Source: Patescibacteria group bacterium
GTDB taxonomy: Bacteria; Patescibacteriota; Minisyncoccia; Phycocordibacterales; Zambryskibacteraceae
NCBI GenBank assembly: GCA_038058745.1
Contig: JBBUAI010000013.1
Span: 1-26,762 of the forward strand
Length of the DNA: 26,762 nt
Direction of reading: 5' to 3'
In this document: positions 1,988 through 24,879 of the stretch, piece after piece
Position numbering within the stretch: the stretch's first letter is position 1
How the letters are laid out: each line of letters starts with the position of its first letter
The notes under the pieces: generated by a model
Told to the model about the DNA's origin: nothing
Seen by the model: the letters and a program-made list of their open reading frames with translations, nothing else
Databases searched by the model: none
Made by a program: the position numbers and the translations under genes

Positions 1988-2037
1988 AAGATTGCCACCA
2001 TACGTTAAGATTTCCCTGTGGTGAAAAGATAACGTAT

Positions 2038-2071
2038 ACATCTAACTCTAGCTATAGCAGAAGATAGATGT
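2038..2071. repeat. Palindromic element copy D: ACATCTA-N6-GCTATAGC-N6-TAGATGT
   Basis: 7-bp inverted arms (acatcta / tagatgt) placed symmetrically around the palindromic core gctatagc. Same core and geometry as the copies at 3401, 24217 and 24842. Lies in the convergent tlyA/rpsA intergenic region. Confidence 0.4.
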
Positions 2072-2073
2072 AA

Positions 2074-2103
2074 GCAAAAACTCCGCACTTACGAAGTTTT
2101 TGC
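2074..2103. terminator. AT-rich hairpin (12-bp stem, 1 mismatch, 6-nt loop) between convergent tlyA and rpsA; weak bidirectional terminator candidate
   Basis: gcaaaaactccg-cactta-cgaagtttttgc. A/T runs lie inside the stem, so it is weak as an intrinsic terminator. A second AT-rich 9-bp inverted repeat (agaaataga...tctatttct, 2122..2155) overlaps the rpsA stop. Confidence 0.3.
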
Positions 2104-2147
2104 TTTAGGTCAGTTAGAACTAGAAATAGAAATTAGAATAATTTTCT

Positions 2148-3269
2148 CTATTTCTTTTCTACAAACGAGAAAGCCATTTTCTGCTCCTTCGGGTCGAACA
2201 AAGTGATTTTGAAGGTGTAGGTCTTGCCCATCTCGAGCTTCTCGCGCAATTTTTCTTCCGAGCCGAACTCCGAGATGTGGATAAGACCAGCGACGCCTTC
2301 TTCTATCGAGGCGAGCGCGCCGTGCTTGTTGTATTTGATGATAACGCCTTCGACCACATCATCTTTCTTGTAAATCTTCGAGGCTTCTTTCCACGGATTC
2401 TCCTTGAGCGCCTTGATAGAGAGGGAAATCTTGTCATCCTTGATTTCTATAACCTTCACTCTGACCTTCTCACCGATTTTAAACATAGTTTTCGGATTCT
2501 CTACCAAGCCCCAGTCGATTTCCGAGATATGCACCAAGCCCTCGAGGCCTTCCTCGAGCTTGACGAAGACGCCGAAGTCCACGAGCCCCGTCACTTCGCC
2601 CATAAGTTCATCGCCGAGCGAATATTTGGAGACGATATTTTCCTTATCTTTAGTTTCAGGAGATTTTTCTGAGAAGATTAATTTCCCTTCTTTGGGATTT
2701 ACGCCGATGATAGTGACCGAGAGCTTCTCACCGATGAGCTTCTTAAGCTCATCGAGGATTTTATCTTTATCTCCATCGGAGATGCGCGGGTAGTGCTCCG
2801 GCTTCAGCTGCGATGCCGGGAGGAATCCGATAATGCCCTGCCAGTTGATGATGAGACCGCCCTTATTAGCATCCGTTATTGGGAGCTCGAATATACGCTT
2901 CTCGCGGATAGCATCTTCGGCTTCGTTCCAGATGATGGCCTGACGCGCTTCCTTGAGAGAAATTTCGAAATATCCTTCAGCGCCACCCACGCCCACGACC
3001 TTGCCGGCGACGATATCACCGACGTTAATCTTCTTGATAATGTCGCGGGCGTTGATGAACTCGCGCCCGTAGATGATGCCCGTGCCGAAAGGTGGCAGGT
3101 CGATGTAGACCGCGCCCTTATCAATGGAGATAACCGGCCCTTCCATCAAGTCGTCGACCGCCGGCGGAGCAGGGATTTTGTCTAGGAAACTTGATGCAGG
3201 AGCTTCAGCAGGAAATATTGCCTCGCTTTTAACTTCTTCTATCTTTTTCTTGCGTGTAAATAATGCCAT
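2148..3269 (-). CDS. rpsA: 30S ribosomal protein S1 (short, 373 aa, multi-S1-domain)
   Basis: Repeated S1 (OB-fold) domain signatures, e.g. 'GEVTGLVDFGVFVKLEEGLEGLVHISEI' and 'VEGVIIKYNKHGALASIEEGVAGLIHISEF', and the 'KVRVKVIEIKDDKISLSIK' pattern. Confidence 0.9.
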   Translation of the reverse strand: MALFTRKKKIEEVKSEAIFPAEAPASSFLDKIPAPPAVDDLMEGPVISIDKGAVYIDLPPFGTGIIYGREFINARDIIKKINVGDIVAGKVVGVGGAEGYFEISLKEARQAIIWNEAEDAIREKRIFELPITDANKGGLIINWQGIIGFLPASQLKPEHYPRISDGDKDKILDELKKLIGEKLSVTIIGVNPKEGKLIFSEKSPETKDKENIVSKYSLGDELMGEVTGLVDFGVFVKLEEGLEGLVHISEIDWGLVENPKTMFKIGEKVRVKVIEIKDDKISLSIKALKENPWKEASKIYKKDDVVEGVIIKYNKHGALASIEEGVAGLIHISEFGSEEKLREKLEMGKTYTFKITLFDPKEQKMAFSFVEKK

Positions 3270-3372
3270 ATGATCCGCCAGCTGACGGATGCCGCTTCCG
3301 GTCCGACTGCTTCATCTGTGTTTGCCAGAGCAGCCGGGATAACAGAAACGGTTGCTAATAAATAACTACGCT

Positions 3373-3400
3373 ACTATATCAGAATCTCTAAAAAATTCAA
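3373..3400 (-). promoter_or_regulatory. Candidate sigma70-type promoter for rpsA (TTGAAT-16-TATAGT on the minus strand)
   Basis: Reverse complement reads TTGAAT tttttagagattctga TATAGT. The -35 abuts palindromic element copy A. It would give a ~95-nt 5'UTR. Confidence 0.35.
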
Positions 3401-3438
3401 CTACATAATAAGAATCCTATAGGACCACTATTATGTAG
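3401..3438. repeat. Palindromic element copy A: CTACATAATA-N18-TATTATGTAG with central CCTATAGG
   Basis: Perfect 10-bp inverted arms with palindromic centre cctatagg. The reverse complement matches copy C in 13 consecutive nt (ctactacataata), the CTATAG core and TTATTATGT. Confidence 0.55.
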
Positions 3439-3583
3439 TAGTTAAATAATTAAATAATGAAAAGGGCGGGACCATCACGGTCCCGCCCTGGTTGATCTCG
3501 GTTCCGCCGATCACGGTTGCGCGCACGTTGGTCCGAGCGAATTCCAGAACTTCCGAGAAGACCGCCAACTTGTCAGTCCGCAT
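3431..3583 (-). CDS. Possible 50-codon small ORF (MRTDKLAVFSEVLEFARTNVRATVIGGTEINQGGTVMVPPFSLFNYLTTT) inside an orphan promoter-to-terminator unit
   Basis: AGGAGG sits 8 nt upstream of the ATG (3583). It is below the ORF-track length cutoff. The terminator hairpin lies inside its 3' coding part, so it may instead be a small RNA. Confidence 0.3.
   Translation of the reverse strand: MRTDKLAVFSEVLEFARTNVRATVIGGTEINQGGTVMVPPFSLFNYLTTT
3452..3488 (-). terminator. Rho-independent terminator on the minus strand
   Basis: Minus strand reads GGGCGGGACC-GTGAT-GGTCCCGCCC followed by TTTTCATTATTT (10-bp GC-rich perfect stem plus U-run). No U-run follows it on the plus strand. Confidence 0.6.
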
Positions 3584-8217: not shown

Positions 8218-8523
8218 ATGAAAGATTTAATTGTCTGCGACGGAGTAACGGTGCCATGCACTTTCGAAAAACTTGTTGAACTGGTGGAGGTTATCATTAC
8301 CGACCTGGTCTACCTCTCAACCTTTCTTGCCGTAGCCGCCTTCGCTTACGCTGGCTACATTCTTCTCACCTCCGGAGGCAATACCTCAGCCCGTGACAGA
8401 GCCAAGAGCATATTTCTCAAAGTACTTATCGGCTATGTGTGGATACTCGCGGCCTGGCTTGTGGTTTACACTATAACCAGTGTTTTGCTTAATCCCGGGT
8501 ATTCTCTGCTCGGTGCGCCATGA
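8218..8523 (+). CDS. Small two-TM membrane protein (VirB2/TrbC-like hairpin architecture), array member 1
   Basis: TM1 LVYLSTFLAVAAFAYAGYILL, short polar loop (TSGGNTSARDRAKS), TM2 IFLKVLIGYVWILAAWLVVYTI. 101 aa. Confidence 0.55.
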   Translation: MKDLIVCDGVTVPCTFEKLVELVEVIITDLVYLSTFLAVAAFAYAGYILLTSGGNTSARDRAKSIFLKVLIGYVWILAAWLVVYTITSVLLNPGYSLLGAP

Positions 8524-8527
8524 TAAA

Positions 8528-8881
8528 ATGAAAAAAATAATTCTTACCGCATATTACTTTCTCATCATTTCTTCGGCTTTTGCCCAGGGTGATGTCGAGC
8601 ATAGGATAGAAATCAAAAATCCCTTCGGCCGCGGCATCGACTCGCTCTTCGACCTTTTGAAAACGGTGGTAAACGATATCATCTTGCCTATAGGGGGAGT
8701 GCTCGCGGTGCTTGCTTTCATCTATTCCGGCTTTCTCTATGTGACGGCGCAGGGCAACGATACCAAGCTCAAGACGGCACACAACGCCCTTCTTTATACC
8801 GCCATAGGCACGGCGGTGCTTCTCGGTTCCTGGACTCTGGCCAATGTCATCAGCAATACTATCGATAAACTGAAGACATGA
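8528..8881 (+). CDS. Small secreted/two-TM protein (VirB2/TrbC-like), array member 2
   Basis: Start chosen at MKKIIL (8528), 5 nt after the upstream stop. Sec-type signal peptide (...SSAFAQG) followed by two hydrophobic helices separated by 'TAQGNDTKLKTAHN'. Confidence 0.55.
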   Translation: MKKIILTAYYFLIISSAFAQGDVEHRIEIKNPFGRGIDSLFDLLKTVVNDIILPIGGVLAVLAFIYSGFLYVTAQGNDTKLKTAHNALLYTAIGTAVLLGSWTLANVISNTIDKLKT

Positions 8882-9168
8882 AAGACCCCCGCACATTCGC
8901 CGACATAATAAAGATTTTTACCGGTTTAATCAGTCTTGCCGTTCCCGTCGTGGCTGCCTTGGCGCTTCTCGCCTTTCTTAAAGGTTTGGTCGCTTTTATC
9001 GCCAAGGCGGGAGATGAGAAGAGTCATGCGGAAGGCAAAAATCTCATGGTCTGGGGCCTCGTCGCTCTTTTTGTCATGGTGTCGATTTGGGGAATAGTAC
9101 GCTTCCTATCTGGAGAGGTTGGTTTCGGCCCCACCTTAAAGCTTCCCTTTTTACCCCCAGTCAAGTAA
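8878..9168 (+). CDS. Small two-TM protein, array member 3 (paralog of members 4 to 6)
   Basis: ATGA start/stop overlap with member 2. Conserved block 'ALLAFLKGLVAFIAKAGDEKSHAEGKNLMVWGLVALFVMVSIWGIV'. Confidence 0.6.
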   Translation: MKDPRTFADIIKIFTGLISLAVPVVAALALLAFLKGLVAFIAKAGDEKSHAEGKNLMVWGLVALFVMVSIWGIVRFLSGEVGFGPTLKLPFLPPVK

Positions 9169-9178
9169 TATTAAAATC

Positions 9179-9529
9179 ATGAATAAATTGACCAAAGTCT
9201 GCATTCTCACTCTGGCGGCTATTCCTTCTATGGTGTTCGCGCAAGGGCGGATTATTTTATTGCTTACAGATGTAAAGTACATCATAAGAACTCTTATCAT
9301 CATAGTCGCGGCTATTGCTCTCCTGGTTTTCTTCTGGGGCCTGGTTAGATTTATTTTCAAGGTTGGCGGAAGCGAAGAAGCGGTAAAAGAAGGCAGAACT
9401 CTCATGATATGGGGGTTAATCGCCCTCTTCGTCATGGTTACAGTGTGGGGGTTAATAAGCTTTATAGAAAGGGAAATATTCGGCACTCTTGATAAGAGTG
9501 ACCCTAATATTCCAAGCTTTAGACCTTAG
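9179..9529 (+). CDS. Small two-TM protein with signal peptide, array member 4
   Basis: Signal peptide ending AQG, then 'ALLVFFWGLVRFIFKVGGSEEAVKEGRTLMIWGLIALFVMVTVWGLISFI', clearly paralogous to members 3, 5 and 6. Confidence 0.6.
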   Translation: MNKLTKVCILTLAAIPSMVFAQGRIILLLTDVKYIIRTLIIIVAAIALLVFFWGLVRFIFKVGGSEEAVKEGRTLMIWGLIALFVMVTVWGLISFIEREIFGTLDKSDPNIPSFRP

Positions 9530-9533
9530 AATA

Positions 9534-9877
9534 GTAGGGGATAACCCCCACACCTATTTTTCTATTGTCGCAAATCATATAATACGTCTATGTATTATGT
9601 ATTATGTGTATATTCTAAAAAGTAAAAAAGATAACAATTTGTATTATGGTTCCACAAATGATTTGCGACGCAGGCTAGTAGAGCACAATACTGGTAAAAA
9701 TCGCTCTACCAAAGCTAGAAAACCATTTGAGCTGCGCTATTACGAAGCTTACTATAACGAAAATGATGCCAGAGGTAGAGAGTATTCTTTAAAGAAGGAC
9801 GGTAGAGCTTTAGCGCAGCTCAGGCGGAGGTTAGAAAATAGCCTGCTATAGAGAAATAGGTGTGGGGGATAACCCGG
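9534..9877. mobile_element. AT-rich ~340-bp cassette: GIY-YIG nuclease gene bounded by ~22-bp imperfect terminal inverted repeats, inserted within the two-TM gene array
   Basis: Left end GGGGATAACCCCCACACCTATTT (9537..9559). Right end AAATAGGTGTGGGGGATAACCCGG (9854..9877). The inner 15 nt (CCCCCACACCTATTT) are identical in inverted orientation. Each end also contains a GGGG-ATAA-CCCC mini-hairpin. Cassette GC is about 33% versus about 48% in the flanking genes. Confidence 0.45.
9597..9851 (+). CDS. GIY-YIG nuclease superfamily protein (YhbQ/UPF0213-like), 85 aa
   Basis: 'YYVYILKSKKDNNLYYGSTNDLRRRLVEHN...GKNRSTKARKPFELRYYEAY..ENDARGREYSLKK' carries the GIY...YIG, catalytic Arg and Glu/Asn motifs. 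Start placed at the in-frame ATG at 9597, where the domain begins. Confidence 0.8.
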   Translation: MYYVYILKSKKDNNLYYGSTNDLRRRLVEHNTGKNRSTKARKPFELRYYEAYYNENDARGREYSLKKDGRALAQLRRRLENSLL

Positions 9878-9965
9878 TTGTCTTTATAGTCCCTTGACGT
9901 ATCATAGATATATACCATCAGGTATTAAAATTAGTAGTAAATAGTAGATAGTAAATAGTAAATAA

Positions 9966-10310
9966 ATGAAAAAAGTTATTCTTGCCGCTCTGGCCCTGGC
10001 CCCCTCACTCGCTTTCGCACAGAATCTAGGCAACCTTAATAATCTCATAACCTCCGTTGGCAATCTTGTTGAGCTTGCCTTGCCTATTGTGGTAGCAATT
10101 GCGCTCCTCGCCTTCTTCTGGGGTTTGGTCAAATTCATCTTCTCTGCTTCCGGTGAAGAGGCGCATAAGGAAGGCCAGCGCCTGATGATCTGGGGCCTCG
10201 TTGCCCTCTTCGTCATGGTTTCCGTCTGGGGACTTGTAAAGTTTATCGGCACCGCCCTCGGCGTCCAGCAGGGAGATACCATCATTGTCCCAAGAGTTCC
10301 GGGCATATAG
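9966..10310 (+). CDS. Small two-TM protein with signal peptide, array member 5
   Basis: 'MKKVILAALALAPSLAFAQ' signal peptide, then 'ALLAFFWGLVKFIFSASGEEAHKEGQRLMIWGLVALFVMVSVWGLVKFI'. A tandem AT-rich repeat (gtaaatagtaRat x2, 9937..9963) precedes it. Confidence 0.6.
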   Translation: MKKVILAALALAPSLAFAQNLGNLNNLITSVGNLVELALPIVVAIALLAFFWGLVKFIFSASGEEAHKEGQRLMIWGLVALFVMVSVWGLVKFIGTALGVQQGDTIIVPRVPGI

Positions 10311-10364
10311 TTTCGACTCCGCTGGTTCAATATCCTCACCATAAATCACTACAAGTAGTCTCTA

Positions 10365-10631
10365 ATGCCGATAGAATCGTTCCTGAACAAAATCAATCAG
10401 TTCATCCTTAACCCTATAATCGGGCTTGCGTTTGCCGTCGCCCTCCTCGTCTTCTTCTGGGGAATCTTCCAGTTCATCAATTCGGAGACGACTGATGCCA
10501 AGCGCGATGAGGGGAAGAGAAAGATTTTCTACGGACTTCTCGGCATGTTCATCATGATTTCCGCCTTCGGCCTTATCCGCTTGATTTTGAACACCTTCGG
10601 CATCACTCCGCCTTCTTACCCCGGATTCTGA
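10365..10631 (+). CDS. Small two-TM protein, array member 6 (no signal peptide)
   Basis: 'IIGLAFAVALLVFFWGIFQFI...DEGKRKIFYGLLGMFIMISAFGLIRLIL' is paralogous to members 3 to 5. Confidence 0.55.
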   Translation: MPIESFLNKINQFILNPIIGLAFAVALLVFFWGIFQFINSETTDAKRDEGKRKIFYGLLGMFIMISAFGLIRLILNTFGITPPSYPGF

Positions 10632-24216: not shown

Positions 24217-24254
24217 CTACATTTTAATAATGCTATAGCATCCTTATAATGTAT
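24217..24254. repeat. Palindromic element copy B: CTACATTTTAATAAT-GCTATAGC-ATCCTTATAATGTA
   Basis: Direct repeat of copy C at about 80% identity, with the same gctatagcatc core and the same flank lengths. Abuts the stop codon of the wHTH/Cas2-like gene. Confidence 0.55.
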
Positions 24255-24824
24255 TTAGATAAGATTGAAATCCATCCGTAAATACTTGTCGTTTTCTATT
24301 TGGTCCACTATCATGTAAAGCAAATTCTTTCCTATACCTAGATCAGTTTTCATCAAGCCCATAACATCTTCGCAATCGTAAGGATAAACCCAAACGCTGT
24401 CTTGTAGCCGGATGAATCCTGTGGCTGAAAGTATTTTTCTAACCCGTTCTCGCATTTTCTTTTTCTTCTCCGGAATGTCGAAGATTATCACTCGCCACTT
24501 TTTATCCCATCTTTTTGGACGTTTAATTCGATAGTTAGACATTTGCCATTGATCTAATATTTTTGTTCCGGCTGCAGTAGGAGAATAATGCCCGTTCTCA
24601 AATATAAGCAATCCTTTTCGGCTTAAGCGACTTGCGGCAGATTTCACTATCTCACTTTTTCTTGGAGAAGTAGCGGAGAAATCAGTATCGAGCAGGGAGT
24701 CTATTACTTGTTTTGCTAGCATATCTCCTCCTATTCTTCCGCTAGAAACAATAACTAAAAGAATTGCCTCCTGCATTTTTGTTCTTCTTAAATTTTTTCT
24801 AGTTGCTTCCTCGAGATTTCCCAT
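24255..24824 (-). CDS. Hypothetical regulator-like protein: N-terminal winged-helix-like region plus a C-terminal segment resembling the Cas2/VapD beta-alpha-beta core
   Basis: C-terminal 'WRVIIFDIPEKKKKMRERVRKILSATGFIRLQDSVWVYP' resembles the Cas2 N-terminal core as recalled from memory ('hhVhV.YDIs.dkRRrKlaKlL.dyG.RvQ.SVFEc'). N-terminal 'EIVKSAASRLSRKGLLIFENG' looks like a wHTH recognition helix plus wing. About 38% GC. Flanked by palindromic copies B and C. The start may be Met1 or Met17. Confidence 0.55.
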   Translation of the reverse strand: MGNLEEATRKNLRRTKMQEAILLVIVSSGRIGGDMLAKQVIDSLLDTDFSATSPRKSEIVKSAASRLSRKGLLIFENGHYSPTAAGTKILDQWQMSNYRIKRPKRWDKKWRVIIFDIPEKKKKMRERVRKILSATGFIRLQDSVWVYPYDCEDVMGLMKTDLGIGKNLLYMIVDQIENDKYLRMDFNLI

Positions 24825-24841
24825 TTTTAGTTACTATTCTA

Positions 24842-24879
24842 CTACATAATAATAAAGCTATAGCATCGTTATTATGTTT
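24842..24879. repeat. Palindromic element copy C: CTACATAATAATAAA-GCTATAGC-ATCGTTATTATGTTTA
   Basis: 8-bp inverted arms cataataa / ttattatg placed symmetrically around gctatagc. It lies 18 nt upstream of the wHTH/Cas2-like start, over its presumed promoter (TAGAAT 13 nt upstream of the ATG). Confidence 0.55.

Follow-up and report, generated by a model that had tools for sequence, protein, structure and literature searches.

The window analyzed here, a 26,762-nucleotide stretch of DNA corresponding to positions 6147-32908 of contig CAYIXK010000002.1 in the metagenome-assembled genome (MAG) GCA_964367465.1, contains a family of 36-bp palindromes, two copies of which enclose a gene for a protein with a predicted winged helix-turn-helix (wHTH) and a Cas2-like domain, while three others lie around rpsA (Table 1). 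The same sequence is also present in assemblies of 0.1-µm-filtered groundwater from Hainich well H51, and the palindrome copies are invariant across independent assemblies from one population. The contig is that of a Candidatus Zambryskibacteria-like groundwater MAG of the Candidate Phyla Radiation (CPR), with a CPR/Parcubacteria-typical gene content that includes a class I LysRS, type IV secretion system (T4SS)-pilin-like genes and a compact housekeeping set. We argue that the palindromes are probably operators of autoregulated, paralogue-specific PaaX-like (wHTH/Cas2-like) regulators, organized in operator-gene-operator cassettes and accompanied by a few orphan sites away from them.

Table 1 Palindromes and associated features in the window.
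Feature	Position	Strand	Sequence or description
Fifth copy (orphan)	2001..2036		TACGTTAAGATTTCC CTGTGG TGAAAAGATAACGTA; TACGT class (clade 1b); abuts D; overlooked in the preliminary description
Copy D (orphan)	2037..2072		TACATCTAACTCTAG CTATAG CAGAAGATAGATGTA; class TACATC/GATGTA, which flanks clade-1a PaaX-like genes
rpsA	2148..3269	(-)	373 aa, four S1 domains; neighbor of orphans, not a demonstrated target
Candidate rpsA sigma-70-like promoter	3373..3400	(-)	TTGAAT-16-TATAGT; consensus match only
Copy A, span in the preliminary description	3401-3438		CTACATAATA-agaat-CCTATAGG-accac-TATTATGTAG; pairing runs one base further, 3400/3439
Copy A (orphan), 36-bp palindrome	3402..3437		TACATAATAAGAATC CTATAG GACCACTATTATGTA; arms of the resident-cassette type (TACATWATAA)
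Copy B, downstream palindrome of PaaX-like gene	24218..24253		begins 1 nt past the stop codon; intergenic, with the next gene convergent
wHTH + Cas2-like (PaaX_M) protein, proposed cognate binder	24255..24824	(-)	189 aa; PF20803, 1.2e-19
Putative -10-like hexamer	24836..24841	(-)	TAGAAT; between copy C and ATG, 11 nt before the start
Copy C, promoter-side (upstream) palindrome of PaaX-like gene	24843..24878		end lies 18 nt 5' of ATG

A preliminary description of this DNA had reported four copies of one palindrome family, A to D, and placed A and D on either side of rpsA. Copies A and D have the positions and sequences given there, B and C also exist, and a gapless alignment places the four in the same register, TACAT-N10-CTATAG-N10-ATGT(A), which bears out their membership of a single family. 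The inner bases are C..G in copy A and G..C in copies B and C, and the arms of copy D, described as spanning 2038-2071, are really 8 bp long and reach out to 2037/2072. The 15-base pattern TACAT-N10-CTATAG-N10-ATGT matches the window at A, B, C and D only, compared with a mean of 0.01 sites in dinucleotide-preserving shuffles even when two mismatches are allowed. The window has seven CTATAG hexamers, four of which form the centers of these palindromes; among its inverted repeats the palindromes rank 1st, 2nd, 3rd and 7th. A scan with a generalized pattern, for which 0.001 matches are expected per window (2000 shuffles), detected the fifth copy. Copy D, whose resemblance to the other copies might have been fortuitous, stands above background: it is identical at 34/36 positions to the downstream palindrome of a PaaX-like gene at a clade-1a locus (L100) and at 30/36 positions to an orphan in the MAG most closely related to this one. 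The fifth copy is identical at 34/36 positions to a site in a Lake Baikal MAG (L054), where the 72-bp tandem pair formed by the fifth copy and D recurs in nearly identical form between BipA and TruB.

The motif is almost confined to the Zambryskibacteria lineage. When one genome from each of 185,579 species was scanned with a 17-base version of the motif, 47 loci were found. Of these, 41 belong to MAGs of Candidatus Zambryskibacteria or related Parcubacteria, from sources that include Rifle, California groundwater, Lake Baikal and Hainich, and every one of the 41 is intergenic; the other six lie in other phyla and mostly within open reading frames (ORFs), the pattern expected of chance matches. 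The consensus is TACATWATAA-nnnnS-CTATAG-Snnnn-TTATWATGTA. Roughly 2-7 matching copies occur per MAG (these being MAGs, not complete genomes), and in flanking DNA that had not been selected for the motif we counted three orphans in ~400 kb, or about one per 130 kb. Beyond the copies listed in Table 1, none was found in the 41 kb of the contig examined, and the family is absent from the 2.9 million viral contigs searched. A chance origin of the palindromes is ruled out by the shuffles together with this restriction to one lineage.

The pairing of the palindrome with a gene is strongly conserved across the lineage. Ten MAGs carry an orthologue of the 189-aa gene bracketed by two copies ~630 bp apart. 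An alignment of these proteins, used to search metagenome contigs, retrieved more than 538 relatives. The best 80 loci were kept, and in nearly all of them one 36-bp palindrome directly precedes the gene and another lies 6-40 nt past its stop codon; in more than 50 of these 80, the upstream palindrome and the start codon share a base, the final A of the former being the A of the ATG. In all, the bracketing was seen in ~90 homologous loci. A distant paralogue at L050 (1002-1547, 181 aa) is bracketed by 35-bp repeats (955-989 and 1562-1596) with TTTGTAC-type arms and a CGGTCG core, with extra TTTGTAGAA repeats downstream, and the layout is therefore older than the TACAT/TACGT classes. Orthologues have TAGAAT, TACAAT or TATAAT at the place of the TAGAAT hexamer in the window, and where the ATG overlaps the palindrome end, a TAnnnT hexamer lies 6 nt upstream of the ATG; this placement suggests short-leader or leaderless mRNAs. 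The cassette layout seems undescribed, as we did not find it in the literature on PaaX together with Cas2 or CPR, or on palindromes of Zambryskibacteria.

The surroundings of the cassettes are stable. Each paralogue keeps its neighbors across genomes even though the flanking proteins are only 40-85% identical, and at two syntenic sites the cassette is either there in full or missing altogether, with neither palindrome nor footprint at the empty sites. No target duplication was seen at cassette borders. Active mobility was rejected given the synteny across divergent genomes and the absence of both target duplications and viral copies, and the clean empty sites and stable positions likewise set the cassettes apart from miniature inverted-repeat transposable elements and insertion sequences. 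The gene downstream of the cassette is convergent in 55/74 loci, which led us to reject the idea that the downstream palindrome is the operator of a co-directional downstream gene. At two related loci with the same neighbors, L066 and L071, the asymmetric interior of the downstream palindrome is reversed (CTTTC..GATTA versus its reverse complement), and judging by these sequences the segment between the arms looks as if it had been flipped.

The enclosed gene belongs to a large family whose name depends on the database. The protein scores 38.7 bits against the NCBIfam PaaX model (TIGR02277, cutoff 264.55) and 32.6 bits against the Cas2 model (TIGR01573, cutoff 24.5); because it falls below the first threshold and above the second, the family is named "CRISPR-associated endonuclease Cas2" by NCBI, as opposed to PaaX by JGI. 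At E<=1e-5 the family numbers 1818 homologues, most of them called Cas2 in public records, a label that is likely a widespread mis-annotation. Neither cas1 nor any other cas gene appears in the gene and Pfam tables of L001 and L006, no repeat-spacer array was detected with Tandem Repeats Finder (TRF), and no paa (phenylacetate) genes occur in the 41 kb of contig, where the neighbors are housekeeping genes. Only PaaX_M and Cas2 domains were found in the protein, with no HUH or other transposase domain.

An AlphaFold2 model of the protein (mean predicted local distance difference test (pLDDT) 69.5; ~85 in the C-terminal domain) consists of a helix-helix-helix-wing (H-H-H-beta-beta) followed by a ferredoxin-like beta-alpha-beta-beta-alpha-beta fold. 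The best Foldseek matches are PaaX from E. coli W (8a39) and Rv0674 from M. tuberculosis (3kfw), with many Cas2 structures next, while a sequence search of the PDB gave marginal matches only. The chain ends after the Cas2-like domain and lacks the C-terminal effector domain of PaaX. The preliminary description held that no annotated feature explains the pairing pattern of the palindromes; this is correct, but only since the likely cognate gene goes by the name of a CRISPR endonuclease.

Protein clades co-cluster with palindrome classes. The clade to which the protein in the window belongs (clade 2) goes with TACATWATAA arms, clade 1a with TACATC...GATGTA and clade 1b with TACGTTA...TAACGTA, and the core varies among CTATAG, CGGTCG/CGACCG/CGATCG and CCATGG. 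Residue 59, which falls in the third predicted helix of the wHTH, is I or V where the palindrome is of a TACAT class, whereas 30/30 TACGT-class proteins have Y; this makes it a candidate specificity determinant, one that is confounded with phylogeny. Three paralogues of differing codes (L073, L085 and L118) lie on a single contig, Ga0155128_15. Orphan palindromes resemble the cassette palindromes of their own genome, inner positions included (MHVR01, LCQJ01, MHWN01 and JACOVQ01). In JACOVQ01, the closest relative of the window MAG, the arm of a clade-1a cassette is identical at 15/15 positions to the left arm of copy D and to that of the genome's own orphan (L036). It is this correspondence between protein clades and palindrome classes that supports the predicted specific binding of the proteins to the palindromes.

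Orphans of different classes are often adjacent in one intergenic gap, either abutting or 13-46 nt apart (L012 1465/1547, L015 5846/5895, L054 4238/4274 and window 2001/2037), which suggests composite sites. A hairpin formed by an A-tract and a T-tract (AAGCAAAAACTCCG...CGAAGTTTTTGCTT, window 2072-2105) begins at the final base of copy D, and an alignable hairpin also follows the D-type orphan of JACOVQ01 (L036 595-650), where the flanking genes differ (ParB region).

Among the closest characterized counterparts is the PaaX repressor of E. coli and Pseudomonas. In E. coli, PaaX recognizes the operator TGATTC-N27-GAATCA and silences its own promoter by keeping RNA polymerase from binding (PMC9493321); no PaaX-DNA structure had been elucidated as of that 2022 review (PMC9493321). 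The likeness extends from the protein, a wHTH with a Cas2-like middle domain for which 8a39 is the top structural match, to the DNA, where the inverted half-sites follow TACAT-N26-ATGTA in the window copies and ~170 related sites compared with N27 in E. coli, and perhaps to the position of copy C at the putative promoter of the regulator itself, which would recall PaaX autoregulation by RNA polymerase exclusion. Unlike PaaX, the protein has no C-terminal phenylacetyl-CoA-binding domain (189 versus ~305-316 aa), no paa genes nearby and a TIGR02277 score far short of the cutoff. Also unlike the PaaX system, the palindrome has a conserved core and 10-bp arms, so that the whole 36 bp is specific; a second copy follows the stop codon; several paralogues with their own codes occur per genome; and the Cas2 Asp is kept. 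DeoR, GalR and LacI likewise use two or more operator copies hundreds of bp apart, one of them at the promoter, but here the second operator would lie past the 3' end of its own monocistronic gene, and does so family-wide.

The most probable reading of these data is one in which the regulators, built from an N-terminal winged helix and a Cas2-like dimerization domain with no ligand domain, repress their own synthesis. Each cassette would comprise a 36-bp palindrome that contains or abuts the promoter, a gene of ~565 bp and a second palindrome shortly after the stop codon. A symmetric oligomer would recognize both the outer half-sites (TACAT/ATGTA, with 26 bp between them) and the inner S-CNNNNG-S core, and its binding would cover its own promoter. 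As an auxiliary operator, the downstream copy could close a loop of ~625 bp; alternatively, it could be a roadblock facing the neighboring gene, which is usually convergent. Several paralogues per genome would each respond to a palindrome code of their own. In the window, B and C would be the operators of the resident cassette, and A would be an orphan of the resident arm type beside the rpsA promoter candidate. Copy D and the fifth copy would have the codes that belong to two further paralogue clades, whose members are presumably encoded elsewhere in the genome.

Several observations sit uneasily with this autorepression model. The operator role is deduced from sequence and a predicted structure, and the N-terminal half of the AlphaFold2 model, which contains the putative DNA-binding domain, is of low confidence (pLDDT 50-69). 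The Cas2-like half is more conserved than the wHTH, and the Asp at the end of Cas2 beta1 (FDIPE), which is lost in Rv0674, is kept and invariant; both features hint that the Cas2-like domain does more than dimerize. The clade-1a and clade-1b paralogues that copy D and the fifth copy call for are presumed to lie in this genome beyond the 41 kb of contig examined, and a conserved downstream copy is not needed for simple autorepression.

The orphans raise difficulties of their own. About 20% of them, including D and the fifth copy, lie in convergent gaps, a setting unsuited to a promoter operator. The genes next to orphans are unrelated housekeeping genes (by Pfam, among others BipA/TruB, SMC, SecF, GatB, AspRS/ScpA, SHMT, TGT/MreB, RpiB/Rpe and SerRS), and a conserved regulon was rejected, as all-against-all clustering of these neighbors gave 49 singletons and few orthologous positions. 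Moreover, 13/33 orphans are perfect palindromes, even where positions vary freely between sites; among the orphans are perfect 36-bp palindromes (18/18 pairs) whose inner spacers differ (L010, L017, L020, L025, L026, L027, L039, L040, L048 and L054). Such an excess of symmetry is not predicted by independent half-site recognition or a simple dimer-operator model. Quasipalindrome correction by template switching is an established mutational mechanism and could be its source, as could a requirement for a cruciform or hairpin. The downstream copy, the orphans in convergent gaps and the excess of perfect symmetry are left unexplained by the autorepression model and keep a nuclease- or REP-like reading alive. 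The notion that orphans are remnants of decayed cassettes was rejected, since a six-frame profile search with filters off gave no match at E<=1 within ±800 nt of 41 orphans.

We regard as unlikely, though deserving of some weight, the alternative that the wHTH/Cas2-like protein cuts, nicks or recombines hairpins or cruciforms formed by the palindromes flanking its own gene, as a selfish or domesticated module resembling the repetitive extragenic palindromes (REPs) and their REP-associated tyrosine transposases (RAYTs), with the orphans as dispersed products. Such an activity would accommodate the bracketing of the gene on both sides in ~90 loci, the presence or absence of the cassette as a unit at two syntenic sites, the recurrence of the 72-bp tandem pair in the Baikal MAG, the flipped interior of the downstream palindrome in L066 versus L071, the excess of perfect palindromes, the invariant Asp at the Cas2 catalytic position, and an orphan placement that ignores gene orientation and involves unrelated neighbors. 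It is harder to reconcile with the low copy number (~2-7 per MAG, about one orphan per 130 kb of flanking DNA), with paralogue neighbors that stay the same while flanking proteins diverge, and with the lack of near-identical gene copies, of which none was seen. Gene remnants are missing within 800 nt of 41 orphans, empty sites have no footprint, cassette borders show no target duplication, the 2.9 million viral contigs hold no copy, the hairpins are thermodynamically weak, and the protein has no HUH or other transposase domain.

As in REP/RAYT systems, a single gene is flanked by extragenic palindromes that are also dispersed intergenically, and palindrome type co-varies with the flanked gene; unlike in those systems, the flanked gene does not encode an HUH/Y1 transposase, copies number a handful rather than tens to hundreds per genome, the stems are weak and AT-rich, and positions are stable over long divergence. 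With CRISPR Cas2 the protein shares the ferredoxin-like fold, the FDIPE Asp at the beta1 end and a TIGR01573 score above cutoff, and the associated repeats are 36 bp long and palindromic, but there are no cas genes and no array, an N-terminal wHTH is fused to the domain, and two repeats 625 bp apart enclose the gene. We see only a slim chance that the wHTH/Cas2-like proteins are sequence- and structure-specific enzymes acting on their own flanking 36-bp repeats, a CPR counterpart of REP/RAYT built on the Cas2 fold. If true, a free-standing Cas2 homologue would recognize CRISPR-repeat-sized palindromes without CRISPR, which would bear on the origins of the Cas2-repeat association.

It is also rather improbable that each palindrome is a pair of back-to-back promoters, with an outward-facing TATWAT -10 element plus GTA in each arm giving leaderless or short-leader transcripts with no dedicated binder. 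TATAAT or TATTAT is indeed found in both arms, in more than 50 loci the last base of the palindrome is also the first of the start codon, with the TAnnnT hexamer 6 nt before it, and the gene-distal arm of upstream TACGT-class copies is nearly always TACGTTATAAT. With few copies per genome, however, this is not a general promoter; conservation extends to the outermost TAC/GTA and the C-N4-G core, which are no sigma-70 elements; arm and core classes follow the clades of the PaaX-like proteins; and downstream copies as well as orphans in convergent gaps would drive antisense transcription only.

The strand symmetry of the sites bears on whether they work as DNA or RNA. Mismatches in the sense-strand arms are G:T or A:C with equal frequency (56 versus 60 in upstream copies, 61 versus 64 in downstream copies), so that an RNA-strand signature is lacking. 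With folding energies of -4 to -7 kcal/mol as DNA, the hairpins are weak; Rfam has no match for the palindromes, and a terminator scan did not report them, a GC-rich stem followed by a U-tract being absent; separate GC-rich terminator hairpins are located ~0-25 nt from A, B and D. These data favor a double-stranded DNA signal over one that acts as RNA. Complementarity between the arms is high at some variable positions (at position 15, A/G, 100% complementary versus 51% expected; at position 4, S:S), and much of this arm-to-arm covariation is the specificity classes themselves. That the palindromes are RNA hairpins serving as terminators, stabilizers or translational operators of flanking mRNAs, rpsA included, is very doubtful: every copy can fold (z-scores -1.9 to -4.2) and copies are found at both ends of transcription units, 5' and 3', but the AT-rich stems, the dedicated terminators nearby, the lack of strand bias in G:U wobbles, the empty Rfam search and the position of the upstream copy, largely 5' of the inferred start site, led us to reject an RNA motif.

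With the autorepression model as the preferred reading, the relation of the palindromes to rpsA can be reconsidered. The preliminary description had proposed that a dimeric DNA-binding protein recognizing copies A and D could loop or repress this gene. A symmetric DNA-binding protein is the best explanation of the sites, and the window itself contains a candidate gene for it (24255-24824(-)), whereas the tie of the family to rpsA is not borne out, as unrelated housekeeping genes adjoin orphans in other genomes. The element TTGAAT at 3400-3395(-) next to copy A is present as described, with a 16-nt spacer and TATAGT at 3378-3373; copy A lies 132 nt 5' of the rpsA ATG and spans roughly -36 to -71 relative to this promoter candidate. 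Copy D does lie past the rpsA stop codon, at 75 nt rather than 77. It is located between rpsA and a convergent FtsJ-like gene, as is the fifth copy, and so is not a promoter operator for either neighbor.

Looping from A to D by one protein is unlikely because the two copies are in different specificity classes, which track different protein clades. In the sole other rpsA locus recovered (L053, RpsA 72% identical) the bracketing is not conserved: one class-I copy lies in the gap between rpsA and a divergent gene of the metallo-β-lactamase (MBL) fold, 530 nt from the former and 114 nt upstream of the latter, and no copy is found downstream of rpsA. Given the class difference between A and D and the L053 layout, the apparent bracketing of rpsA is most likely incidental, a sobering outcome for the gene that first drew attention to the family. 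It is possible, if unsupported by these data, that copy A regulates rpsA or the divergent side.

The rpsA leader has features of its own. The 106 nt from the promoter candidate to the ATG (window 3267-3372 (-)) form a strong RNA fold (-40 kcal/mol, z = -3.55; 0/200 shuffles as stable) with no Rfam match, in which the last hairpin ends right before the start codon and no obvious Shine-Dalgarno sequence is apparent; this may be an S1-type autoregulatory leader. On the other side of the promoter candidate, a called 50-aa ORF (window 3431-3583 (-)) has a strong AGGAGG ribosome-binding site, a GC-rich terminator hairpin in its 3' part (3463-3489) and a stop codon inside the right arm of copy A. Elsewhere in the window, six small T4SS-pilin-like genes (PF18895) stand in a row at 8218-10631 (+), and an 84-aa GIY-YIG ORF (9597-9851) splits this run within a low-GC stretch (0.41 versus ~0.50).

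CPR/Patescibacteria cannot be grown alone and encode few regulators, and to our knowledge almost nothing is known about their transcriptional regulation. Against this background, the present analysis pairs a large protein family (>1800 homologues, mostly called "Cas2") with predicted DNA sites, with several apparently orthogonal protein/operator codes per genome and a candidate specificity residue. The predictions can be tested in vitro without cultivation; if upheld, they would correct a widespread mis-annotation and could supply compact orthogonal repressor/operator pairs.

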